A stretch of 20,012 nt of DNA from Planctomycetaceae bacterium. GTDB taxonomy: Bacteria; Planctomycetota; Planctomycetia; Planctomycetales; Planctomycetaceae. The translations under genes and the position numbers were made by a program. Below are positions 3,462-19,992 of the stretch, piece by piece. The first letter of the stretch is position 1. Each line of letters opens with the position of its first letter. The notes below the pieces were generated by a model. It searched no databases. It was not told the DNA's origin and saw only the letters and a list, made by a program, of their open reading frames with translations. Location: contig JBBECD010000164.1 of assembly GCA_040881995.1 (NCBI GenBank), forward strand, positions 1 to 20,012. Reading direction: 5' to 3'.

Positions 3462-3703
3462 CAGATTACCGGCTTTGTCTTCCAGTTTCTCCGTATGGTG
3501 TCGCGCCACACAATCAGGTGCCGCGACACCGCATGCGGACGGAAACGCGACTTTTTCGAGCCCGCAAAAAAGGATTTCAGTCTCGCTTGAATTTTTTGTA
3601 CAGATAAATAAGATCGTATCAGTTCGCACGATCATCTCATCGTCCCCGACGGTCGGGGGAACGAACCTTTCAGAACCGACAGTCGGAATGTTATGGAGTC
3701 ATC

Positions 3704-3949
3704 ATGATCGCGGCCCCTTATTATCTTCTCGCAGCGGGTATTTTGCTGATCGTTCTGGGTGTGATTTTCGCGGCGGTAATGCGGCCGACGATCGACAAAA
3801 CTTACATCGACCCGCGGATGAGCGACAAGCAGATTAAGAAACAACTCGAAAACGCCGACGGCAACCCCGCCGCGGCAATTGTGATTTTGCTGGGATTTGT
3901 GCTCTGCGGGGTGAGCGTCATTTGGCGGGTAGTGCGGATATTTGTGTGA
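3704..3949 (+). CDS. Small 81-aa membrane protein with two TM helices, unknown function
   Basis: GGAG RBS 8 nt upstream of the ATG. Two clear hydrophobic helices (LLAAGILLIVLGVIFAAV and AIVILLGFVLCGVSVIW). Its stop overlaps the next gene's ATG (TGATG). Confidence 0.5.
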   Translation: MIAAPYYLLAAGILLIVLGVIFAAVMRPTIDKTYIDPRMSDKQIKKQLENADGNPAAAIVILLGFVLCGVSVIWRVVRIFV

Positions 3950-4476
3950 TGGAGATTGTCAAGCGAATCGTCGTTGACCTTACTCTGAACGATTTCATGG
4001 CCTTTACGCGATTTGAACTTGCAAATTCGTCCACAATCCGCCGCATGAATAATAGAACGCTCACCGCGTTTATTCTGATGTTTGTGGTTCCCATTGTCGC
4101 GATCTTTTGGCTTTTCGAGCAGGATCGGATGACAATCGTTTCGGGGCTGATTCTCGTCCTGATGTGCATGTTTATCTGGCCGAGGCAAGTGAAAAGAGCC
4201 GAAGAAGAAAGAACAAAAGCCTTCTACAGTCAGTTTTGCCGCGATGAGTTAGTCAATAAGTTGGAAATGCAAATTGAAGACTCCGGACTCGTCATCATTA
4301 CGAATGCGAGCATGACGAATTGGAACTGGCACTCGATCAAACGCATCGAAACGACGGACGATCATCATTTTGTGTTTGTTACCGACACTTCCGCCCTCAT
4401 CATCCCTCGCCAGCACGTGGCTGAAGGAAATGTCGACGCATTTGCAGCGGAAATGAAACGACGCCTGTCAGATTGA
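3949..4476 (+). CDS. YcxB-like membrane protein, paralog of 2928..3461
   Basis: Same architecture as 2928..3461. C-terminal HHFVFVTDTSALIIPRQHVAEGNVDAFAAEMKRR aligns with YYFVSVGASGTIIIPKARILEGDADAFMNEVEKR. ATG overlaps the upstream stop by 1 nt. The six-frame ORF begins at a TTG at 3922. Confidence 0.7.
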   Translation: MEIVKRIVVDLTLNDFMAFTRFELANSSTIRRMNNRTLTAFILMFVVPIVAIFWLFEQDRMTIVSGLILVLMCMFIWPRQVKRAEEERTKAFYSQFCRDELVNKLEMQIEDSGLVIITNASMTNWNWHSIKRIETTDDHHFVFVTDTSALIIPRQHVAEGNVDAFAAEMKRRLSD

Positions 4477-4777
4477 CCGACGTTCGGCTTGAGTACGCCG
4501 CGGTTTCGTGTTATCGTTTTTCCTTCCATCACCTCGAATTTCACCGGATCGATCTTGAGCCGATCGGTCTGAGACGCCCTCGCTCACCACATGCCGTCAT
4601 TGATTTTTGACGTGACTTTCCCCCTGCGTCGCCGCATTCGCGGGCCTCCCCTCGTCGTTTCGCGCTCATGCTCCGTCCTACGAAGACGACGCCATTTCAA
4701 TTCCGTATTCCTTGTTCGAAGAATTCAACCCCCGTCGACCATGAGCCACTCGGCGGTGAAACTCATCGGCTCAATCC

Positions 4778-5017
4778 ATGTATCGATGCGAAAAGTGCGG
4801 CGTGCTTGTCCCGCCGCGGACCCCTGCCAACCGACTTGTGATCGAGACGCGAGAGAAACATTACCCATACCGGTCGAAAGCGAACCGGGTGGCCTACATC
4901 GACGAGAAAGGGAAACACAAGATCGATTACGTCGACGATCCCGGCGGGACGGGTTTGGAGATCGTGCAAGAGCTTAACGTCTGTCCGAAATGTGCGCGGG
5001 CGGCGACAATAGCGTGA
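4778..5017 (+). CDS. Small zinc-ribbon protein (CxxC...CxxC, FmdB-like N-terminus MYRCEKCG)
   Basis: Two CxxC pairs (CEKCG and CPKCA). A perfect 13-bp stem-loop terminator starts 11 nt after the stop. No strong RBS. Confidence 0.45.
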   Translation: MYRCEKCGVLVPPRTPANRLVIETREKHYPYRSKANRVAYIDEKGKHKIDYVDDPGGTGLEIVQELNVCPKCARAATIA

Positions 5018-5027
5018 CCGATTTGCT

Positions 5028-5065
5028 GCCACTGCTGACCGCTTTGGTCAGCAGTGGCTTTATGG
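5028..5065 (+). terminator. Rho-independent terminator-like hairpin GCCACTGCTGACC-gcttt-GGTCAGCAGTGGC followed by TTTA
   Basis: Perfect 13-bp inverted repeat read directly in the sequence. Lies between the convergent zinc-ribbon gene and ribBA, so it may act in both directions. Confidence 0.6.
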
Positions 5066-5087
5066 CGAATTCGCGTCGGCACACGAT

Positions 5088-5130
5088 TGAAGCGCTCCGC
5101 TGCGCAAAGCCTGCGCGTCGCGGCTAAACG
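5088..5130. repeat. Dispersed repeat family B, copy 2
   Basis: gaagcgctccgctgcgcaaagcctgcgcgtcgcggctaaacg, just past the ribBA stop. Confidence 0.8.
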
Positions 5131-5144
5131 AAGAAACGGCGCGA

Positions 5145-6419
5145 TCACCGCGTCTCGCTTCCGTTGCCGGGGAGGCGGTGGCCCATTTTGTCGCGTTTGG
5201 TGTTCATGTAGACTTCGCGGGTTTTTTCATGCGGGGCGATGATGGGGACTTGCTCGACGACCGTCAGATCGAATGCGTTTTCGAACGGTTCAGTCTTCTT
5301 CGGGTTGTTCGTCAGCAGGCGGATTTTCTTGAGACCTAAATCCTTGAGAATCTGCAGGCCGATGCCGTAGTCGCGCTGGTCGACGCGAAATCCGAGTTCG
5401 GTGTTGGCATCGACGGTGTCGAGTCCCGCATCTTGCAGTTGATACGACTTGAGTTTCGCAACCAGACCGATGCCGCGGCCTTCCTGCGGCAAGTAGACGA
5501 CCGCTCCCGTGCCGTGCTGGTGGATCATCGCCATCGCCATGTGCAACTGGTCGCCGCAATCGCAGCGGAGCGACCCGAGCAGATCGCCGGTGAAGCACGA
5601 GGAGTGCATGCGGATCAGCGGAGCCTCGACGGACTTCAAATCGCCCCAGACGAGGGCCAGCGGCTCCTGATGTTCGTGTTCGACTTTGTAGGCAACGACG
5701 CGCACGCTGCCGTACTGAGCCGTGGGGATGTCGACTTCGACCGCGCGGTGAATCAGCCGTTCGCGCTGCATGCGGTAACGAATGAGGTCGGTCGTGCTGA
5801 TGATCGGCAGCGAATAGGTCTGCGAGAGTTCGGCGAGCTCGCGGTAATCGGCCATGCCGTCGCCGGTGGCACTGCAGATTTCGATCAGCGCTCCGACCGG
5901 CTTGAGTCCGGCGAGTTTGAGCAGATCGATGGTGGCCTCGGTATGACCGGCCCGGCGCAGAACGCCCCCCTCTTTCGCCGAGAGAGGCATGATGTGTCCC
6001 GGGCGGACGAAATCGATGGCGTGCGCTTCGGGGTCGGCGAGCGATTTGAGCGTCAAAGCTCGCGCGGAGGAGCTGACTCCCGAGCCGGAATTGCGGTGAT
6101 CGACGGGCGTGAGAAAATGCGTGCGGTTGGGGGCGTTGTTGTTTTCGCTGCTGACGATCGGGACGAGACTGAGCCGGTCGGCGATCTCTTTGGTCATCGG
6201 GGCGCACAGCACGCCGCGTCCGTTGCGGAGCATGAAGTGCACCATCTCGGGGGTGATCGATTCGGCGGCGCAGATGAAGTCCCCTTCATTCTCGCGGTCG
6301 GCCTCGTCGACGACGATAATCATTTTGCCTTGTTTAAGGGCTTCGAGTGCCGCGTCGACGGAATGATATGCAATACCCGGCGAGGGATCGGGGGAGGTGA
6401 GCAGCGAGCGTTCGATCAC
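5145..6419 (-). CDS. ribBA: Bifunctional 3,4-dihydroxy-2-butanone-4-phosphate synthase / GTP cyclohydrolase II
   Basis: N-terminal DHBP synthase domain (VVDEADRENEGDFICAAE...HTEATIDLLKLAGL). C-terminal GTP cyclohydrolase II with zinc-binding CFTGDLLGSLRCDCG and LTNNPKK motif. GTG start at 6419. Confidence 0.95.
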   Translation of the reverse strand: MIERSLLTSPDPSPGIAYHSVDAALEALKQGKMIIVVDEADRENEGDFICAAESITPEMVHFMLRNGRGVLCAPMTKEIADRLSLVPIVSSENNNAPNRTHFLTPVDHRNSGSGVSSSARALTLKSLADPEAHAIDFVRPGHIMPLSAKEGGVLRRAGHTEATIDLLKLAGLKPVGALIEICSATGDGMADYRELAELSQTYSLPIISTTDLIRYRMQRERLIHRAVEVDIPTAQYGSVRVVAYKVEHEHQEPLALVWGDLKSVEAPLIRMHSSCFTGDLLGSLRCDCGDQLHMAMAMIHQHGTGAVVYLPQEGRGIGLVAKLKSYQLQDAGLDTVDANTELGFRVDQRDYGIGLQILKDLGLKKIRLLTNNPKKTEPFENAFDLTVVEQVPIIAPHEKTREVYMNTKRDKMGHRLPGNGSETR

Positions 6420-6663: not shown

Positions 6664-8344
6664 ACCGCGAGACTTTGGGCGCACTCGCCGGCTTCACCGG
6701 CGGGGAATATTCGGACGTCGCTTCGTCCTGCTTCATCTGGCGGCCGAGCATCACGTCGGTGAAGCCTTTGAGGTCGGTCCAGAAGGTTCCCTGGCCGGCG
6801 TAGAGCAGATTGAGCTGGATGTCGTCGGGCAAGCCGGAAGCGAACACCCATTGGTTGTAGGCTTCGCCGCTGCCGAAGGCCTCGACGGCGAGCTGGAACT
6901 TCTGCGATTTGGCTTCCTGCATCAGCTTCTCGGCGTCGGCATCGGCCCGGCCCAACAGCACGACGGCCTGCGCGTCGAGTTCGGCGGTCTCCCTAGCAAT
7001 CGTGGCGACTTTCTTCTGCGTCTCGGCTTTGGTCTGCTCGGCTACCTTTTGCCCCTCGGCGATCGCTTCGGCGACGAGCTTGCCGGTCTCGAGTTCGGTT
7101 CGTTCCGATTCGAGTTCGACCTTCTGTTCTTCCTCGCGCAAAGTCGCCTCGGTTTTCGCGGTCAACTGTTCCTGATCGCGGGTCAACTTAAGTTCGTTGG
7201 CGATGTTCGACAGTTGAATCGGCAGACGCACTTCCCGCGGGATGTACATGTGACGCACGAGTCCGTACAGCAGCGAGAGTTCTTTTTCTTCAAGAACCTT
7301 CTTAAACGATTCGGTCGTTTCGTCCTGAAAACCCTGGCGGGTTTCGCCGACGAGCAGATCGACTGCGCCGACTTTTGAACCCATGTTGCGGCAGATGCTT
7401 TCGATCTGCGGGCCGATGACTTTGGTTTCCACGGCGTCGATGTTGCCGAACTTGCGAATCACTTCGGGGGCCTGTTCGGGCAAGATGCCCCAGATCGCCG
7501 TGAAATCCATGTGAATCTTGAAACCGTCTTTCGACGGGAAGGTGATGCCGCTCTCCTGGTCGGCGAGCATCGGTTCGCCGCTTTCGTCGAAAATCAGATC
7601 GCCGGCCTGATCGGCTTTCAGGTTGACGGTCAGAGAGAGTTCGCGATAGCCGATTTTGACGAGATCGACATGTTGCTCTTTGGGATTGATGGCGTAGAGT
7701 CCGGGAGGGAGCGTCTGATCCTGGATACCGGCTTTGGCCCCGGTCTCTTTATCGCCGGTCAAATTGGTGACGACGCCGATATATCCCGCCGGGATATCGA
7801 CCCAGCCGTTGTGCCGTTTGTCGTAGGTGACAGCGGCATCTTCGGTCGCGACGATCTCAAATTTGTAGGCGTAGTCGTTGATGCGATACCGGCCGGGGCC
7901 GAAGACGCGGCGGACGATGCCCTTGTGCTGCGTCGCGCCGAGATCCCCTTCGACGAGGAATTCTCCTTTCGGCAGGTCGTTCCCCATCTTGCTGCTGGCG
8001 ATGCCGACTTGACCGGGCTTGACTTCGACGTCCTCGATCAGCGTGCATTCCCACCAGAGCGGGTTATAAAAATGCCGCCCTGGGCCGACCATCTGTTCGA
8101 GCACGCCGACCTGGGTCGGTCTGCCCTGTTCGTCGACTTCGGCGAACGTTCCCGGTGTGACGGCCGGCAGACTCCCCGGCAGCCCTGGCAGCGGCGGGCC
8201 TTTGTATCTCAGCCTCATGCTATAGCCGACCGGGACGTAACGGTAGTTGACGGTCCACTGGACCGCTTCCCAACCGGCATACACGCCGGGGACGAGCAGC
8301 AGGACGGCGACGATCAGATAACTGGTCCATTTTTCGCGGAACAT
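6662..8344 (-). CDS. SPFH/band-7 (flotillin/YqiK-like) membrane protein. N-terminal TM, duplicated beta-rich module, SPFH domain and coiled coil
   Basis: N-terminal TM helix (YLIVAVLLLVPGVYAGW). SPFH core FPSKDGFKIHMDFTAIWGILPEQAPEVIRKFG. Long Glu/Ala/Lys-rich coiled coil (EQLTAKTEATLREEEQKVELE...). GAGGA RBS 8 nt upstream. Confidence 0.85.
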   Translation of the reverse strand: MFREKWTSYLIVAVLLLVPGVYAGWEAVQWTVNYRYVPVGYSMRLRYKGPPLPGLPGSLPAVTPGTFAEVDEQGRPTQVGVLEQMVGPGRHFYNPLWWECTLIEDVEVKPGQVGIASSKMGNDLPKGEFLVEGDLGATQHKGIVRRVFGPGRYRINDYAYKFEIVATEDAAVTYDKRHNGWVDIPAGYIGVVTNLTGDKETGAKAGIQDQTLPPGLYAINPKEQHVDLVKIGYRELSLTVNLKADQAGDLIFDESGEPMLADQESGITFPSKDGFKIHMDFTAIWGILPEQAPEVIRKFGNIDAVETKVIGPQIESICRNMGSKVGAVDLLVGETRQGFQDETTESFKKVLEEKELSLLYGLVRHMYIPREVRLPIQLSNIANELKLTRDQEQLTAKTEATLREEEQKVELESERTELETGKLVAEAIAEGQKVAEQTKAETQKKVATIARETAELDAQAVVLLGRADADAEKLMQEAKSQKFQLAVEAFGSGEAYNQWVFASGLPDDIQLNLLYAGQGTFWTDLKGFTDVMLGRQMKQDEATSEYSPPVKPASAPKVSR

Positions 8345-8406
8345 GTTCGTTCCTCACTTTCAAATAACACGCGATCCACCATCAGCCACGACTTACCACG
8401 CACGAC

Positions 8407-8442
8407 TCACTATCCACTGACCACTATCCACTATCCACTTCA
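8407..8442. repeat. Short tandem nonamer repeat CTATCCACT (about 3.5 copies) in the intergenic region between the two SPFH genes
   Basis: cactatccactgaccactatccactatccacttcac read directly. Confidence 0.6.
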
Positions 8443-14315: not shown

Positions 14316-14343
14316 TTGCATTCTACATATTTTTGTGTAGAAT
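14316..14343 (+). promoter_or_regulatory. Sigma70-like promoter TTGCAT-N16-TAGAAT overlapped by a palindromic operator ATTCTACA-N8-TGTAGAAT. Candidate Rrf2 autoregulatory site
   Basis: Read directly. The -10 element ends about 30 nt upstream of the Rrf2 ATG. RBS AAGGAGAG follows. The 8+8 palindrome has an AT-rich centre typical of Rrf2/NsrR sites. Confidence 0.55.
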
Positions 14344-14372: not shown

Positions 14373-14801
14373 ATGCTCACGAAAACGGCGGAATACGCGC
14401 TTCGCATCGCCGCCTGCCTGGCGGCTGACGGCGAAGCTCCGGAATCGGCCGATCGCCTTGCCGAAGTCACCAAGATTCCCAGGCGATATTTGCCGACCGT
14501 GCTGCAAGATCTCGTTCGCGCGGAACTGGTTCGATCCCGTTCCGGTCCCGGAGGGGGATATTCGTTGGCGAGACCCGCCGATAAGATCACGATTCTCGAC
14601 GTCGTCAACGCCGTCTCTCCCCTCGAACGAATTCGACATTGCCCCCTTGGATTGCCCTCCCATACGCGGCTTTGCCCGCTACATAAAGTGCTCGACCAGG
14701 CCTATGCGGAAACCGAAAAGGCTTTCGCCGGCGTGACGATCGCGGACGTGCTGAACTCCGTCACAGACGTCGTCCCCCTCTGCGATGTTTCATGCTCATG
14801 A
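14373..14801 (+). CDS. Rrf2-family transcriptional regulator (NsrR/IscR-like) with non-canonical Cys spacing
   Basis: N-terminal wHTH MLTKTAEYALRIAACLA. GGGYSLARP motif. Cys cluster CPLGLPSHTRLCPLH plus C-terminal PLCDVSCS. Strong RBS. Confidence 0.85.
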   Translation: MLTKTAEYALRIAACLAADGEAPESADRLAEVTKIPRRYLPTVLQDLVRAELVRSRSGPGGGYSLARPADKITILDVVNAVSPLERIRHCPLGLPSHTRLCPLHKVLDQAYAETEKAFAGVTIADVLNSVTDVVPLCDVSCS

Positions 14802-14893: not shown

Positions 14894-15550
14894 ATGAACA
14901 TCATCCATGCTATTCGCCCGAAAATCGTTTGTGCAGCCGCTCTCGGGCTGAGCTTTGCGTCGGCCTTTTGCGTCGCGACGGCTCAGGACGAAGTCCCCGC
15001 CGCGAAATCCAAAAAACGCGCTCGACCGGCACTCACCATCGAAGACAAAGATCGCGTCTCGGTCGACGTCGCACGCGACCGAGCCAGAACCATGCACGAA
15101 GTTTACGCGGCGACGCTGGAAACCATGCATCACCATTATTTCCACGGCGACAAGGCAGCCGTCCCGGCGCGTGCGATGGAAGACACCTTCTACTCGATCA
15201 AGCACGAGCTCAAAATCGAGGCACGCTGGATTGCCGTAAACGCCAGAGCCATGAGCATCGATCACGAAGCCGAAACCGAATTCGAAAAGGACGCGGTCCG
15301 CGTTCTCTCGTCGGGCAAGTCGGCTTACGAAAACGTAGATAAGGGCTTCTATCGTCGCGCGGGAACGATACCGCTGCACGGGGGCTGCATCCGCTGCCAC
15401 AGCAATGTGTTCGGAGAGCCGCCTAAAGTCGCGAAATTCGCGGGGCTGGTGATCAGCGTGCCGATCCATCTCGAGGGCGAACAGGCCGATCCCGACGCGG
15501 CTGAGTCGGACAGCGTCGAAGCCAAAAAAAGCAGCGCCCCCGCCGAATAA
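14894..15550 (+). CDS. Secreted c-type heme protein, DUF3365/Tll0287-like (PAS-like heme sensor domain). Paralog of 15632..16192
   Basis: Signal peptide (AFCVATA-QDE). Single CXXCH (GGCIRCHSN). Conserved blocks HEVYAATLETMHHHYFH, RWIAVNARAMSIDH, GFYRRAGTIPL shared with the downstream paralog. Confidence 0.7.
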   Translation: MNIIHAIRPKIVCAAALGLSFASAFCVATAQDEVPAAKSKKRARPALTIEDKDRVSVDVARDRARTMHEVYAATLETMHHHYFHGDKAAVPARAMEDTFYSIKHELKIEARWIAVNARAMSIDHEAETEFEKDAVRVLSSGKSAYENVDKGFYRRAGTIPLHGGCIRCHSNVFGEPPKVAKFAGLVISVPIHLEGEQADPDAAESDSVEAKKSSAPAE

Positions 15551-15631: not shown

Positions 15632-16192
15632 ATGACGAACTCCATAGGGATCATCTCCCCGATCGCGGTCTGTCTATCGGTATTGACCATCAGCCACGGC
15701 AGCGATTCCTCTAAGACGGCGCCTCAAACCGCCGGCAGTTCCGCTGAGAAAATCGCAGCAAAAATTGAACCTCCCACGTTGGCGGCAGCCCGCCGGCAGG
15801 CTGAAATCCTGCACGAGGCGATGCACGATACGCTGCAGATCGTGCATCACCAATATTACCGCGAAGACCAGGGTCTGCCGATTCCCGCCGCGATTTTGAA
15901 GGAGGTTTTCGCCGAACTCGAAAAAGAACAGCACGTCACGCTCCGCTGGCTCGCCGTCGAGGGGCAGGCGATGAACACCGACCACAAACCCCAAGACGAT
16001 TTCGAACGCGCGGCGGCGAAGGCGTTAGGTTCGGGCCAACGGGCCTATGAGGCGGTCGAAGCAGGCCTCTACCGCCGAGCCGGCCCGATCACGCTGAACA
16101 ACCATTGCCTCAAATGCCACGTCCCCGACCGCAAGAGCACCGAAGACCGCACCGCGGGATTGATCATCTCGATGAAGATTGAAGCGGATTGA
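15632..16192 (+). CDS. Secreted c-type heme protein, DUF3365/Tll0287-like. Paralog of 14894..15550
   Basis: Signal peptide. CXXCH (NHCLKCHVP). Blocks HEAMHDTLQIVHHQYY, RWLAVEGQAMNTDH, GLYRRAGPITL. RBS GAGGA. Confidence 0.7.
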   Translation: MTNSIGIISPIAVCLSVLTISHGSDSSKTAPQTAGSSAEKIAAKIEPPTLAAARRQAEILHEAMHDTLQIVHHQYYREDQGLPIPAAILKEVFAELEKEQHVTLRWLAVEGQAMNTDHKPQDDFERAAAKALGSGQRAYEAVEAGLYRRAGPITLNNHCLKCHVPDRKSTEDRTAGLIISMKIEAD

Positions 16193-16226: not shown

Positions 16227-16517
16227 TCAGAGGGTGAATATTTGGAAGAGATACCAGATCACGGCCAAGCCGGCGACAGCCAGGATGACAATCAACACGA
16301 CCGCCAGCCATTGAGTCGACGCGCGGTCGATCGTGCGGACATCGATGGCATGCCGCAATTTCGCGGCTTCGGGATTCTCATGATACTCAGGATGAGGGTG
16401 ATCGAACGGAGCCGTCAACTTCTCCTCGAATTTTTTCTTGTCGAAGTCGGGAGGGGTCGGATTATCGCCGAATTCGGTTTCGGTGTTCATGATCTCGCTC
16501 CTGAAAACATTGCTCAT
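16227..16517 (-). CDS. Small 96-aa tail-anchored membrane protein (C-terminal TM), unknown function
   Basis: RBS AAGAGG 5 nt upstream of the ATG. Acidic, His-containing N-terminal part (FDHPHPEYHENPE). Single C-terminal TM helix WLAVVLIVILAVAGLAVIWYLF. Confidence 0.5.
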   Translation of the reverse strand: MSNVFRSEIMNTETEFGDNPTPPDFDKKKFEEKLTAPFDHPHPEYHENPEAAKLRHAIDVRTIDRASTQWLAVVLIVILAVAGLAVIWYLFQIFTL

Positions 16518-16831: not shown

Positions 16832-17449
16832 TTAACGCCGCGGAAATCCCGGCGGCCGATTGCCGATGGGGGGATTATTTCGATTGCGGTCGTGGTCATG
16901 ATCGTGATCGTGGTCGCCATGCCCGTGGCGGGTTTTTACGCCGTAGTCGTCCATCAGGTGATGCAGCGTTTGTTCGCATTCGGCGATCTCGACGTGCAGC
17001 GCGGCACGGGGCGTGTAGCGTGAATCGGGACGCCAGTTTTGTACGTCCGCCTGGAATTCGTGAAACTGCCGGTCGAGTTCATAGAGTTCGTGAGCGACGC
17101 GGTCGTCGAGGCGAGGATGTTGGCCGGCATGTCCGCGGACGATGAAATCGAGCTTCTTCGCCGTTTCCTTAATCGCATACATGTCGCGGTAGACCGACTT
17201 GAAACCGCGGTTGTCGCGATAGTGCCGGTGCATTTCCCAGCAGATGTCGTTCGCTTCGCGGTACAATCGCTTCGCCAACACGTCGACGTGAGAACGTCCG
17301 CCAAACCGGTATTCGTTGGGACCAGCCGGCCCGCGCGGACCCTGCGGCCGAGGCCCTTGAGGCCGCGGTTGAAACTGCGCCGACGCCGAACCGGCGCTCA
17401 GCACCGAGAACGCCGCCAACAAAACAAATGCGAGAATGGGTCGAGACAT
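16832..17449 (-). CDS. Secreted His-rich protein with a C-terminal (His-Asp)n repeat. Putative periplasmic metal-binding protein
   Basis: Excellent RBS AAGGAGGAAG. Signal peptide MSRPILAFVLLAAFSVLSAGSASA-QF. Pro-rich QPRPQGPRPQGPRGPAGP. About 20 His. C-terminus HGHGDHDHDHDHD encoded by tandem gatcgtgatcgtggtc repeats. The ORF extends to 17596, but the signal-peptide ATG is favoured. Confidence 0.7.
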   Translation of the reverse strand: MSRPILAFVLLAAFSVLSAGSASAQFQPRPQGPRPQGPRGPAGPNEYRFGGRSHVDVLAKRLYREANDICWEMHRHYRDNRGFKSVYRDMYAIKETAKKLDFIVRGHAGQHPRLDDRVAHELYELDRQFHEFQADVQNWRPDSRYTPRAALHVEIAECEQTLHHLMDDYGVKTRHGHGDHDHDHDHDRNRNNPPIGNRPPGFPRR

Positions 17450-17510
17450 GGTCTTCCTCCTTGAGATGATGTAGAAACACTTTCCGCGGGTCATTCCTGG
17501 GAACGCGGGG

Positions 17511-17538
17511 ATAGTATCGATGAAACGAAAATGCGTCA
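17511..17538 (-). promoter_or_regulatory. Near-consensus sigma70 promoter TTGACG-N17-TACTAT driving the His-rich gene
   Basis: On the minus strand: ttgacgcattttcgtttcatcgatactat, read directly. The -10 element is ~60 nt upstream of the ATG at 17449. Confidence 0.5.
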
Positions 17539-17647
17539 ATCGGGGTATTTTTTTCGTCTCTGCGTTCCTCCGCGCCCTCGATTTAACGGGATTCAAATCG
17601 ACCCGTTCCCATTTCTCTTCCCCTTGGGCTATCCCACCCAGTCTGTG

Positions 17648-18091
17648 TCAAAGCGCCGTGGGGCTGGCCGAGAGATCGCACAACGGGTGACTGGTGGTCG
17701 GCTCGGCCAAAACTTCCGCGAGCGTGGTTTGCCGGAATGCATCCTCGACCAGGGCCATCGCGTGATCCATGCGTTTGTGCAAAGGGCAAAGTCGAATGCC
17801 GTGCGATTTCAAACCGAGAGGACATTGGCGAATGCGGACAATCGGTTCCACGGAATTGACGACGTCGAGAATGGTCAGTTCGGAGGGTGTTTTCACCAAA
17901 GCGACCCCGCCCCCGACGCCCCGTTTGGAGTGCGCGATCCCGGATCGGCATAAACCCTGAACGACCTTCGAGAGATAAGGTCTCGGCACAAGCGTGGCGA
18001 CGGCGATCTGTTCGGTCGTCCGAGGCGACGGCGCATGCTCGGCAAGATGCACCACCGCGCGCAACGCATATTCGACGGTCTGAGAAAACAT
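17648..18091 (-). CDS. Rrf2-family transcriptional regulator (NsrR-like), paralog of 14373..14801
   Basis: MFSQTVEYALRAVVHLA wHTH. GGGVALVKTP. Same Cys pattern CPLGLKSHGIRLCPLH plus PLCD. Divergent from the globin gene. Confidence 0.85.
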   Translation of the reverse strand: MFSQTVEYALRAVVHLAEHAPSPRTTEQIAVATLVPRPYLSKVVQGLCRSGIAHSKRGVGGGVALVKTPSELTILDVVNSVEPIVRIRQCPLGLKSHGIRLCPLHKRMDHAMALVEDAFRQTTLAEVLAEPTTSHPLCDLSASPTAL

Positions 18092-18146
18092 TAAAAATAT
18101 TCCAAAAAAAAGTTAAACTGGACCTTGACGTCTAATTAACGATCTC

Positions 18147-18169
18147 ATATCCTGTTCGAAATTGGATAT
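18147..18169. promoter_or_regulatory. Candidate operator ATATCC-N11-GGATAT (TTCGAA core) in the divergent Rrf2/globin promoter region
   Basis: Inverted 6-mers read directly. A TTGACG -35-like element lies at 18125-18130. Confidence 0.3.
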
Positions 18170-18226
18170 TCACATCCTATTATCCACGGCCATCCGAGCA
18201 CCGTCAACCGCAAACAGGAGCAGAAC

Positions 18227-18814
18227 ATGATTAAAATCGACGAAAAGCGACTCGAAACCGACCTCGGTTATCGCTTCGACTACCTCATCAAATTCATGGG
18301 ATTCGGCGAAGACGACGTGGCGGCCATCCACGGCGCCGCACCGGCCATTGCCCCGCTCGTCCCGGCCCTGGTCGACGCCGTCTACGAAAAGCTGCATACC
18401 TACGACGCCACCTGGAGGCACTTTCTGCCGCGGCAGTCGGGATACGAAGGAGCCGTGCCGAAAAGCCTCGAAGAGGTCACCCCCGATCACGAGATGATCC
18501 GCTTCCGCAAAGAGCATCTGGCTCGCTACCTGGCGGCGCTGGTCACCAAACCGTACGACGGCAAGATGGTCGGCTATCTCGACATGGTCGGAAAAATTCA
18601 CACGCCGAAAGCAGGATCCACAGAACTCAACGTCCCGCTGGTCCAAATGAATGCCTTGCTCGGTTTTGTGGCCGACGCTTTGACGAATACGATCTTGAGC
18701 CTGGAACTGGAACGAGCCGTCGAAGTCCAAACGCTGCGTGCGTTCAACAAGTTGCTCTGGCTGCAAAACGACCTTATCAACCGCCATTACCAGGACGCCG
18801 CGCTGCTGAGGTGA
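18227..18814 (+). CDS. Single-domain protoglobin-like globin (globin-coupled-sensor type fold)
   Basis: 195 aa. Pattern FDYLIKFMGFGEDDVAAIH...LVDAVYEKLHTY...RKEHLARYLAALVTKPYDGKMVGYLDMVGKIHTPKAG matches protoglobin/GCS globins, including a proximal His in the GxxH motif. RBS AGGAG. Confidence 0.8.
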   Translation: MIKIDEKRLETDLGYRFDYLIKFMGFGEDDVAAIHGAAPAIAPLVPALVDAVYEKLHTYDATWRHFLPRQSGYEGAVPKSLEEVTPDHEMIRFRKEHLARYLAALVTKPYDGKMVGYLDMVGKIHTPKAGSTELNVPLVQMNALLGFVADALTNTILSLELERAVEVQTLRAFNKLLWLQNDLINRHYQDAALLR

Positions 18815-18827
18815 TGTTGATCCAAAA

Positions 18828-18848
18828 CCCTTCTCCCCCCGGGAGAAG
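18828..18848 (+). terminator. GC-rich hairpin CCTTCTCCC-ccc-GGGAGAAGG immediately after the globin stop. Terminator-like but lacks a U-tract
   Basis: 9-bp perfect stem read directly. Confidence 0.35.
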
Positions 18849-19287
18849 GTGGCCGCAGGCCGGATGAGGGTGCCTTTCGACGAAGTGACCGACACCGTCT
18901 GCGAAACTCGCCGTCGTCATCGGCACGATATGACCTGCTCGAACCGCCCCGGCAACCGTTTCCCGATCCGCCGTTCAACCAAGGCATCGCGGCTGAAGTG
19001 ATCAATCAAAAGACAAAAACCCAAAGGCACACTGGCGGAGCCAGTGCCACCCGAAAAAAGACAAGGCCCTTCGCGTCAAGCCCGTTCGACAGTGCCATCC
19101 CCCGTCCCCACGGACATTTGCAGATTTTCGCCGAAATCGGCATTTTTTCGTTGTTTTCTCGTGCGTTCGTGTTAATCTGCAGTGTGAACTCAGTCGGTCG
19201 CACCCCTTGCTTTCTCCTCGGTTGCACCGTCGTTCGTCGGAGGCAGCATACCGGGTGACGACCCCACTTACCGAAAGGGGCCCGAAC

Positions 19288-19992
19288 ATGTCTCGCAGAG
19301 CCACGACCATTCTTGTGCCATTGTTGCTGTCGGTGTTTGCAAGTTCGACCACAGAGGCCTCTCCCCTGTTTTCGATCGGTGAAGGGGGAGAAAAGACCTG
19401 GACCCAGGCTATCGCCGATGGAAATGTGGTGGCCGTCACACCTGGCGGTGCAGTCGGGCCCGGCAGCGGCCTGACCTACTCGGCCAATCAGTTCTACACG
19501 GCGCAGACTGCCGGCAACTTCGAACAATCGCTGGTCACGCTGACACCCGACATTGCTATCTCCGACGGCTCCGAATCACATCAATCGCTCGTCATGTCGT
19601 GGGATCCGCCGGAGGATGATCCCGATCGGCTGGGCGTGGCGGCATGGGATTACGTTTACGACATCGATCCCGACCTCACCAGGACGATGCTCCACTTTTC
19701 GCTGTTTCCGCCGCCGGGCGTGTGGGACTTCTCGCTGGAACTGATCGATGCCGCCGGTCGTTCGCGCGGCTGGTTTGCCAGCGGCCCCGCCCCCGCCTGG
19801 GCCACCTATTGGATCAGCCCCGATATCGCTGCCGTGCAGGGACCGTTTACGATGTTCTTCGACCAGCCCGGCTTCGACATCACCACGGTGGTGGCGATCC
19901 GTCTCGACGAGGCGGGCATGCAAAGCGCGCCATTCCCGGTGGACCCCACATTTAATGGCCTAGTGCTCTGTCAGGCTTTAATCTTGGGGTAG
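19288..19992 (+). CDS. Secreted hypothetical protein (signal peptide, Gly/Pro/Trp-rich), unknown function
   Basis: Signal peptide MSRRATTILVPLLLSVFASSTTEA. RBS AAGGGG. The ORF continues upstream to 19207, but the signal-peptide ATG is favoured. Confidence 0.6.
   Translation: MSRRATTILVPLLLSVFASSTTEASPLFSIGEGGEKTWTQAIADGNVVAVTPGGAVGPGSGLTYSANQFYTAQTAGNFEQSLVTLTPDIAISDGSESHQSLVMSWDPPEDDPDRLGVAAWDYVYDIDPDLTRTMLHFSLFPPPGVWDFSLELIDAAGRSRGWFASGPAPAWATYWISPDIAAVQGPFTMFFDQPGFDITTVVAIRLDEAGMQSAPFPVDPTFNGLVLCQALILG

Follow-up and report, generated by a model that had tools for sequence, protein, structure and literature searches.

Divergent Genes for an Rrf2 Regulator and a Single-Domain Globin in a Planctomycete Contig

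We analyzed a stretch of 20,012 nucleotides (hereafter, the window) from a metagenome-assembled genome (MAG) of Planctomycetaceae (GCA_040881995.1, contig JBBECD010000164.1, positions 1 to 20,012), in which a gene for a regulator of the Rrf2 family and a gene for a globin are transcribed divergently. The regulator gene, here called rrf2B, occupies positions 17648-18091 of the minus strand and encodes a protein of 147 amino acids (Pfam Rrf2, PF02082, E = 9.8e-26). The globin gene occupies positions 18227-18814 of the plus strand and encodes a single-domain S-family (sensor-type) globin of 195 amino acids (Pfam Protoglobin, PF11563, E = 6.2e-38). The two genes are separated by a spacer of 135 bp (positions 18092-18226). 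The products are named "Rrf2 family transcriptional regulator" and "protoglobin family protein" by PGAP. A preliminary description of this DNA had pointed out the divergent pair, and the pair proved to be real, both open reading frames (ORFs) lying at these positions and the arrangement recurring in other species, as described below.

The Globin Is a Single-Domain Sensor Globin

The globin matched PF11563 with 130.7 bits (cutoff, 25), covering profile positions 3-155 of 158. The protein consists of this one domain and carries no output domain; nor does it possess the C-terminal FAD/NAD(P)H reductase domain by which a flavohaemoglobin (Hmp) is recognized. When the globin was searched against the Protein Data Bank (PDB) using phmmer, no match was obtained even at E ≤ 1, and a profile of 26 family members was required to align it with MaPgb, the protoglobin of Methanosarcina acetivorans. 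This profile matched GsGCS, a globin-coupled sensor of Geobacter (7e-5), MaPgb (1.4e-4) and also HemAT. In the resulting alignment, the histidine of the GKIH motif (H125) corresponded to His120 (F8) of MaPgb and to the proximal histidine of GsGCS, as the preliminary description had expected, and Y53 corresponded to Tyr61 (B10) of MaPgb. H125, Y53 (B10) and F66 (CD region) were each retained in 82 of 82 planctomycete orthologues. H125 is thus predicted to be the haem ligand, with Y53 at position B10 and F66 in the CD region.

The AlphaFold2 (AF2) model of the globin (predicted local distance difference test score, pLDDT, 92.8) showed the 3-on-3 fold of S-family (sensor) globins. Foldseek matched the model to the globins of AfGcHK, MaPgb, HemAT and GsGCS with a probability of 1.0. 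The top match was the sensor-globin domain of AfGcHK, with a target-normalized template modelling (TM) score of 0.90 and a root-mean-square deviation (rmsd) of approximately 2 Å. The match to MaPgb had TM scores of 0.70/0.71 and an rmsd of 3.8 Å at approximately 15% identity. Because AfGcHK fits better than MaPgb, the protein encoded in the window is very probably, as judged from its sequence and model, a haem protein of the sensor-globin lineage rather than one of the MaPgb type. A protoglobin of the type of MaPgb or ApPgb was ruled out, as the PDB search with phmmer was empty and the globins of GsGCS and AfGcHK matched better than MaPgb. Thus, of the proposal that the globin is an MaPgb-like protoglobin, the family and the proximal histidine stand, but the clade is a different one, and the length of 195 amino acids that the two proteins have in common is a coincidence.

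The globin family was small, comprising 584 representatives at 50% clustering (E ≤ 1e-3). Among these were eukaryotic homologues, 35-53% identical, from Rhizopus (P0132), Blastocladiella (P0208), Physarum (P0172) and the glaucophyte Cyanophora paradoxa (P0121); the Cyanophora protein is 2207 amino acids long and contains four tandem copies of the globin domain. Since the window protein is a single domain without an output domain and its nearest relatives are found in fungi and protists, we assign it on sequence grounds to the clade of single-domain sensor globins (Sgb/SSDgb/SDSgb) common to Planctomycetes, fungi and protists. This agrees with an earlier phylogenetic study (Hoogewijs et al., 2012, PMC3287990), where the Sgbs of planctomycetes group with those of fungi. 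The eukaryotic homologues suggest gene transfer between Planctomycetes and eukaryotes, and a transfer between planctomycetes and fungi was already proposed in 2012 (Hoogewijs et al., 2012, PMC3287990). In the literature searched, no function has been assigned to the single-domain sensor globin clade.

The globin was unusually conserved. Across orders, its identity ranged from 69 to 86%, with a mean column identity of 78%, which exceeds the conservation of its own regulator, and long blocks such as PLVQMN and KLLWxQND were invariant (window positions 18227-18814 compared with loci L001-L080, defined below).

Two Copies of a Conserved Palindrome Overlap Both Divergent Promoters

Alignment of 64 orthologous spacers revealed a conserved palindrome of 24 bp, AAAyTGGAY-N6-RTCCAnTTT (approximately 26 bits), which occurs twice per spacer. 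In the window these candidate operators are O1 (positions 18115-18138, AAACTGGACCTTGACGTCTAATTA) and O2 (positions 18159-18182, AAATTGGATATTCACATCCTATTA), which lies 44 bp downstream of O1. When scored with a position weight matrix (PWM) built from the sites of other genomes, with the window sites left out, O1 and O2 reached 24.9 and 28.3 bits, respectively. The third-best site in the window scored -0.6 bits, and none of 500 resampled windows contained a site above 17.7 bits. Further, 119 sites of at least 16 bits were found in 584 kb of related loci, and all but one were located directly upstream of the globin gene. In 48 aligned spacers the positions of the two sites were conserved and the distance from O1 to O2 was 42-49 bp (mode, 44), an offset of approximately four helical turns.

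The operators overlap both predicted promoters. That of the globin gene (plus strand, positions 18125-18153) consists of a -35 box, TTGACG, at 18125-18130, a spacer of 17 nt and a -10 box, TATCCT, at 18148-18153, and its -35 box lies inside O1, in the 6-bp spacer and the right arm. That of rrf2B (minus strand, positions 18207-18179), which a consensus scan detected with 10 of 12 consensus matches, consists of a -35 box, TTGACG, at 18207-18202, a spacer of 17 nt and a -10 box, GATAAT, at 18184-18179, the latter overlapping the right arm of O2. O2 also covers both predicted transcription start regions, the starts being expected near 18160 on the plus strand and near 18172 on the minus strand. 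The layout O1(TTGACA)-17 nt-TAnnnT-O2-approximately 20 nt-GTCAA was kept in the 48 spacers. Most orthologous spacers also shared the block "ccGTCAAcc", approximately 20 nt to the right of O2, and the "ATTAtc" at the end of this operator. Coverage of both promoters by two operators is classically the mark of a repressor that controls its own gene; from this position, and by analogy with the behaviour of the family, we infer that Rrf2B would act by repression.

A different element, ATATCC-N11-GGATAT, had initially been taken for the operator. It occurs as a single exact match at positions 18147-18169. When up to three mismatches were allowed, four matches were found against 4.3 expected, and in the orthologous spacers the best matches agreed at 6-11 of 12 positions and fell on other elements. 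Comparison of the 64 orthologous spacers thus ruled out this element as the operator. Given the fixed order of O1, promoter and O2, it is therefore the -10 box of the globin gene plus the left arm of O2, and not a conserved unit.

Variant sites were observed in three spacers from Gemmata, Gemmataceae and Planctomycetia (L026, L052 and L059), in which lower-scoring, overlapping sites of the form AAATyGGAAnTTGGAGTCCGAATT stood without a standard pair of O1 and O2.

The Divergent Pair Is Conserved among Planctomycetes

We scanned one genome per species and obtained 190 loci with a relative of the globin, the best 80 of which were kept (L001-L080). When the window proteins were compared with these 80 loci using tblastn, an orthologue of Rrf2B (61-82% identical) was found divergent from and just upstream of the globin gene in 64 of the 80 species genomes, usually with a spacing of 125-150 bp. 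The genomes carrying the pair were labelled Pirellulales, Gemmatales/Gemmataceae, Planctomycetales/Planctomycetaceae or Isosphaeraceae, and almost all were placed by their labels in Planctomycetota. Eight further globin loci had no adjacent Rrf2B yet possessed the operator, and eight others (L009, L014, L029, L037, L050, L066, L079 and L080) had neither Rrf2B nor operators.

In the window alone, where ATATCC-N11-GGATAT is statistically unremarkable, the arrangement might be attributed to the chance adjacency of an ordinary Rrf2 gene and a globin gene with no regulatory connection. Because the pair and its operator architecture are conserved across species, with the pair present in 64 of 80 species and the operator pair restricted to the spacer and overlapping both promoters, this explanation is refuted and we regard it as excluded.

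Three globin-locus contigs were labelled as MAGs of Armatimonadetes (L012), Nitrospiraceae (L036) and Verrucomicrobiota (L080). The spacer of L036 differs by one base from that of L020, a MAG of Planctomycetota, so the labels outside Planctomycetota are likely a result of mis-binning. In one complete planctomycete chromosome (L015, positions 3674-5464), copies of the globin gene were located on both sides of rrf2B; one was divergent and preceded by operators, and the other was convergent and lay behind the regulator.

The Operator Pair Also Precedes NO Reductase and Tll0287-Like Genes

Of 70 loci in which the sequence extended far enough past the globin gene, 8 had a gene for a quinol nitric oxide (NO) reductase (qNOR) directly downstream of it, and the same order was found in two of six sampled metagenome contigs. 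The globin-linked qNOR is of full length (PF22085 and PF00115). It aligned to solved qNORs with E values of approximately 1e-253 and its active-site motifs HLWVEGFFEVF and HHLYF were intact, which argues for a canonical qNOR. We also considered whether the gene behind the globin encodes an NO dismutase (Nod) of the "Planctomycetia type" (bioRxiv 10.1101/2023.11.21.568154); the alignment to qNORs and the intact motifs argue against this assignment, with not every Nod-diagnostic residue mapped.

Genes of the Rrf2B type were also found opposite another class of target. Locus L133 contained two of them (positions 204-1309 and 7268-8438), approximately 7 kb apart, with the same operator pair in both spacers. 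One faced a globin gene, and the other, whose product is 83% identical to Rrf2B of the window, faced an operon of a Tll0287-like gene and a qNOR gene. In L137 (positions 4403-5537), the gene opposite one of the Rrf2B type was Tll0287-like, and the operator pair was present there as well. Tll0287/DUF3365 domains have been shown to be c-haem Cache domains (2026 preprint); those that stand alone act as redox proteins, and those of the signalling type bind NO. The arrangement in L133 echoes the presence of two Rrf2 loci in the window, with both Rrf2 genes of L133 being of the B type.

Since the same operator pair precedes units bearing globin, Tll0287-like and qNOR genes, the AAAyTGGAY-N6-RTCCAnTTT operator appears to govern the globin, stand-alone haem-c Cache-type proteins and the NO reductase. 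The control of NO-detoxifying genes, by which NsrR is characterized, is indicated for Rrf2B by operator position and synteny. The idea of a lineage-wide NO or O2 circuit, put forward in the preliminary description, gains support from the occurrence of the same operator pair before the globin-qNOR and Tll0287-like-qNOR operons of other genomes.

A further gene, encoding a secreted protein of approximately 450 amino acids with a single CxxCH motif (…DNCLVCHGSSH…), lay behind the globin gene in 11 loci (L013, L015, L018, L020, L021, L031, L037, L048, L057, L065 and L077; for example, positions 4531-5895 of L077). In L018 this gene was transcribed separately and had its own B-type operator at positions 5964-5987. 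The protein had no match in Pfam or NCBIfam, and we consider it a likely, unannotated member of the regulon.

These arrangements bear on the possibility that gas sensing resides in the globin, which would form a two-protein switch with Rrf2B, ligand binding at the haem altering an interaction of the two proteins that governs DNA binding and the Cys/His site of Rrf2B serving a structural or docking role. An S-family globin without an output domain would suit such a role; further, the globin is conserved beyond its regulator, as would be expected of a constrained protein-protein interface, and its gene is inherited together with that of Rrf2B. However, genes of the Rrf2B type with the same operators face Tll0287-like genes with no globin adjacent, and homologues of the globin exist in eukaryotes, where no Rrf2 partner is expected. 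The operators upstream of the globin gene mark the globin as a target, and the retention in Rrf2B of three of the four positions that hold the cluster ligands of NsrR argues that the regulator senses by itself. We therefore regard a switch of this kind as improbable.

Rrf2B Retains Part of the Cluster Site of Known Rrf2 Sensors

Rrf2B matched the Rrf2 family models PF02082 (90.9 bits; cutoff, 30) and TIGR00738 (99.6 bits; cutoff, 73.3). In NCBIfam the match was confined to the superfamily level, and all equivalog models scored far below their cutoffs, namely, NsrR (NF008240) with 44.1 bits against 182, IscR with 36 against 207 and RirA with 46 against 193. The pipelines of JGI label many orthologues of Rrf2B "nitric oxide-sensitive repressor", which is an automatic assignment with no test behind it.

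In an alignment of 60 orthologues, E7, C90, H97, C102 and H105 were invariant and C138 was kept in 97%. Compared with NsrR of Streptomyces, C90 corresponds to C93, C102 to C105 and E7 to D8, so that three of the four ligands of the [4Fe-4S] cluster have counterparts. The middle ligand, C99, aligns to position 96 of Rrf2B, which is occupied by A, S or K and never by Cys and which adjoins the invariant H97. The ligands of IscR of Escherichia coli are C92, C98, C104 and H107; C90, C102 and H105 of Rrf2B fit this spacing, but the middle Cys is again absent. The closest solved homologue was RsrR (PDB 6HSD; E = 6e-9 with the single sequence and 6.6e-19 with the profile), compared with 5.8e-9 for NsrR. 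E7 and C102 align to E8 and C110 of RsrR, but the full ligand set of RsrR (E8, H33, C90 and C110) is not reproduced, since the position of H33 is an invariant Thr and the C90 residues of the two proteins are offset by seven residues. The AF2 model of the Rrf2B monomer had a pLDDT of 86, with residues 138-147 below 50.

From this pattern, we conclude that Rrf2B represents a distinct subfamily of Rrf2 that very probably bears a cofactor and would be NsrR-like in action without being NsrR. Its sensor site would be drawn from E7, C90, H97/H105, C102 and C138 and would most likely hold an iron-sulfur cluster. Thus, in the comparison with the NsrR-hmp arrangement made in the preliminary description, the divergent logic of regulator and globin holds, but Rrf2B falls below the cutoff of the NsrR equivalog model and lacks the full NsrR ligand pattern.

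The ligand pattern is relevant to two other signals. With the same operators and the same repressor design, the signal could be O2 tension or redox state, in which case Rrf2B would resemble RsrR and the role of the globin would be to store, deliver or scavenge O2 under hypoxia instead of removing NO. The closeness of RsrR among solved homologues and the alignment of E7 and C102 to RsrR ligands are consistent with such a role, the invariant His residues suggest a mixed Cys/His/Glu ligation typical of [2Fe-2S] redox sensors, and low oxygen is a frequent inducer of qNOR and globins. Against it stand the Thr at the position of His33 of RsrR and the displaced C90, and also the fact that qNOR, the sole recognizable enzyme repeatedly found under the operator, acts specifically on NO. 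We consider an O2 or redox signal unlikely.

Alternatively, Rrf2B could report the supply of iron, Fe-S clusters or haem in the manner of IscR or RirA and so tie the output of haem proteins to the availability of their cofactor. The spacing C90...C102-x2-H105 equals the C92...C104-x2-H107 of IscR, all identified targets are haem or iron proteins and the models for RirA and SUF regulators gave weak matches in NCBIfam. Nevertheless, the equivalog models lay far below cutoff, the targets are narrow and centred on NO reduction, and the loci sampled contained no isc or suf genes and none for haem synthesis or iron uptake. This alternative is very improbable.

A Second Rrf2 Locus and the Flanking Genes

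Another Rrf2 gene, rrf2A, is located at positions 14373-14801 on the plus strand (PF02082) and is followed on the same strand by genes for two stand-alone Tll0287-like c-type haem proteins (positions 14894-15550 and 15632-16192; PF11845), which contain the motifs CIRCH and CLKCH. Rrf2A is 47-49% identical to Rrf2B and shows the same Cys/His pattern. Approximately 30 nt upstream of its start lies a perfect 8-8-8 inverted repeat (positions 14320-14343, ATTCTACA-N8-TGTAGAAT), the putative operator of Rrf2A, which overlaps a promoter-like pair, TTGCAT...TAGAAT. Many metagenome loci retained the corresponding 24-bp element, ATTCTrCA-N8-TGyAGAAT, in front of their orthologues of Rrf2A. The operon of Rrf2A and two Tll0287-like genes was kept in approximately 11 metagenome loci (L083-L085, L089-L095 and L115); for many other Rrf2A orthologues, the downstream genes were different or unseen.

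No B-type operator was detected in 198 kb of Rrf2A loci, and a tblastn search of the 80 genomes detected neither Rrf2A nor the two Tll0287-like genes within 4 kb of the globin gene. Because the operators differ, Rrf2A loci contain no B-type site and the two loci do not co-localize, the loci of Rrf2A and Rrf2B appear to be paralogous circuits with separate specificities, whose proximity in the window is not conserved. Thus, two Rrf2 regulators, each accompanied by haem proteins, are indeed present, as had been noted, but they do not form one unit. A theme common to both loci is that Tll0287-like proteins are, elsewhere, also targets of Rrf2B next to qNOR.

A GC-rich hairpin (CCTTCTCCC-loop-GGGAGAAGG, positions 18829-18849) with a 9-bp stem, found in a scan for terminator-like structures, begins 15 nt past the stop codon of the globin gene. 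Its U/T run is confined to the minus-strand side, and it is possibly the transcript end, in the form of a bidirectional or a minus-strand terminator. Downstream of rrf2B, an ORF at positions 16832-17596 on the minus strand encodes a protein with a signal peptide (MSRPILAFVLLAAFSVLSAGSASAQ) and a His/Asp-rich tail (HGHGDHDHDHDHD), has a separate promoter-like site at positions 17539-17511 and may specify a periplasmic metal-binding protein. This ORF and that at positions 19207-19992 had no family match, and neither these two nor the ORF at 16227-16517 co-localized with the globin gene in the 80 globin loci (tblastn). The first 13 kb of the window contain unrelated genes for a GFO oxidoreductase, a pseudouridine synthase, RibBA, SPFH proteins, a disulfide oxidoreductase and a DUF1559 protein.

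Discussion

We propose that NO inactivates Rrf2B and thereby frees O1 and O2, which induces the globin and also, wherever its gene is linked, qNOR; the globin would remove or buffer NO. We give this reading a probability of roughly 0.6. In such an autoregulated divergon, Rrf2B, presumably as a dimer, would bind O1 and O2 as a repressor rather than an activator. Since O1 holds the -35 box of the globin gene and O2 covers both transcription starts and the -10 box of rrf2B, occupancy of the two sites would shut off both genes. NO would then damage or nitrosylate the sensor site of Rrf2B, presumably an Fe-S cluster, so that Rrf2B would leave the DNA and the genes would be derepressed. The globin, cytoplasmic and very probably haem-binding, would consume or buffer NO, by NO dioxygenation in air or, when O2 is low, by NO/nitrite chemistry; its partner in related genomes would be the co-transcribed qNOR. 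The presence of the same operator pair on the globin-qNOR and Tll0287-like-qNOR operons points to NO as the signal.

Several observations weigh against this reading. Rrf2B is not an orthologue of NsrR (44 bits against a cutoff of 182) and, lacking the middle Cys, does not show the C-x5-C-x5-C and Asp8 pattern of that protein; its closest solved homologue is the redox sensor RsrR, and C138, a candidate residue of the sensor site, lies in the low-confidence tail of the AF2 monomer. The window contains no qNOR gene, and qNOR is linked to the globin in only approximately 10% of loci. Further, expression at low oxygen is likewise typical of qNOR and globin genes, so that hypoxia or redox state could be the signal, and S-family globins are classically sensors and not enzymes.

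The proposed circuit follows a known logic. NsrR represses hmp in many bacteria and norB, which encodes qNOR, in Neisseria. As in the NsrR-hmp and NsrR-norB systems of E. coli, Bacillus, Streptomyces and Neisseria, an Rrf2 repressor would adjoin or control genes for a haem globin and an NO reductase, and a palindromic operator of approximately 23-24 bp would lie over an autoregulated promoter, features that are predicted here from sequence. Unlike NsrR, Rrf2B has no middle Cys and has H97, H105 and C138 as conserved extra residues; unlike the spacers of NsrR circuits, that of rrf2B contains two operators 44 bp apart; and the place that a flavohaemoglobin has in NsrR-hmp is taken by an S-family globin of one domain, which lacks a reductase domain. 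To our knowledge, the TGGAY/RTCCA half-site is also unlike the published NsrR boxes.

With RsrR of Streptomyces venezuelae, a [2Fe-2S] protein, Rrf2B has in common E7 and C102 (E8 and C110 of RsrR) but differs in the replacement of His33 by Thr, in the offset of C90 and in its targets. The globin resembles the protoglobins of M. acetivorans (MaPgb) and Aeropyrum pernix (ApPgb) in its Pfam family, its single domain of approximately 195 amino acids, its F8 His and B10 Tyr and its 3/3 fold, but it is approximately 15% identical to MaPgb and contains an additional loop of approximately 13-20 residues between the C and E helices. The literature on single-domain sensor globins of fungi and planctomycetes is purely phylogenetic and describes no regulator or operator (Hoogewijs et al., 2012, PMC3287990).

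Thus, NsrR systems already combine an Rrf2 repressor with a globin and an NO reductase. Apparently undescribed are the subfamily to which the regulator belongs, the pattern of its ligands, the paired operators and an S-family single-domain globin as target. We found no description of an Rrf2-protoglobin pair in Planctomycetota in the literature searched, in accordance with the earlier impression that such a circuit is uncharacterized in this phylum. More tentatively, Rrf2B might represent a new class of Rrf2 sensor, with a site composed of Cys90, Cys102, His97 or His105, Glu7 of the partner subunit and Cys138, that runs a planctomycete-wide NO-stress regulon of the globin, Tll0287-like haem-c proteins, the 450-amino-acid CxxCH protein and qNOR; we hold this possible but doubtful.

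If it were true, the planctomycete "sensor" globins and, by descent, their counterparts in fungi and protists would act not as sensors but as NO-metabolizing enzymes or NO buffers. A regulator, a defined operator and repeated co-transcription with qNOR provide the first concrete and testable context, NO handling, for an orphan globin clade common to planctomycetes and eukaryotes, and cultured carriers of these genes exist, among them Fimbriiglobus ruber, Schlesneria sp. T3-172, Bremerella cremea and Gemmata algarum. Further, Rrf2B is a natural variant of the cluster site of NsrR, IscR and RsrR and bears on the question of how the type of cofactor and the specificity for a signal are set within the Rrf2 family. 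Few transcriptional regulons have been defined in Planctomycetota, and the one proposed here would add to them.

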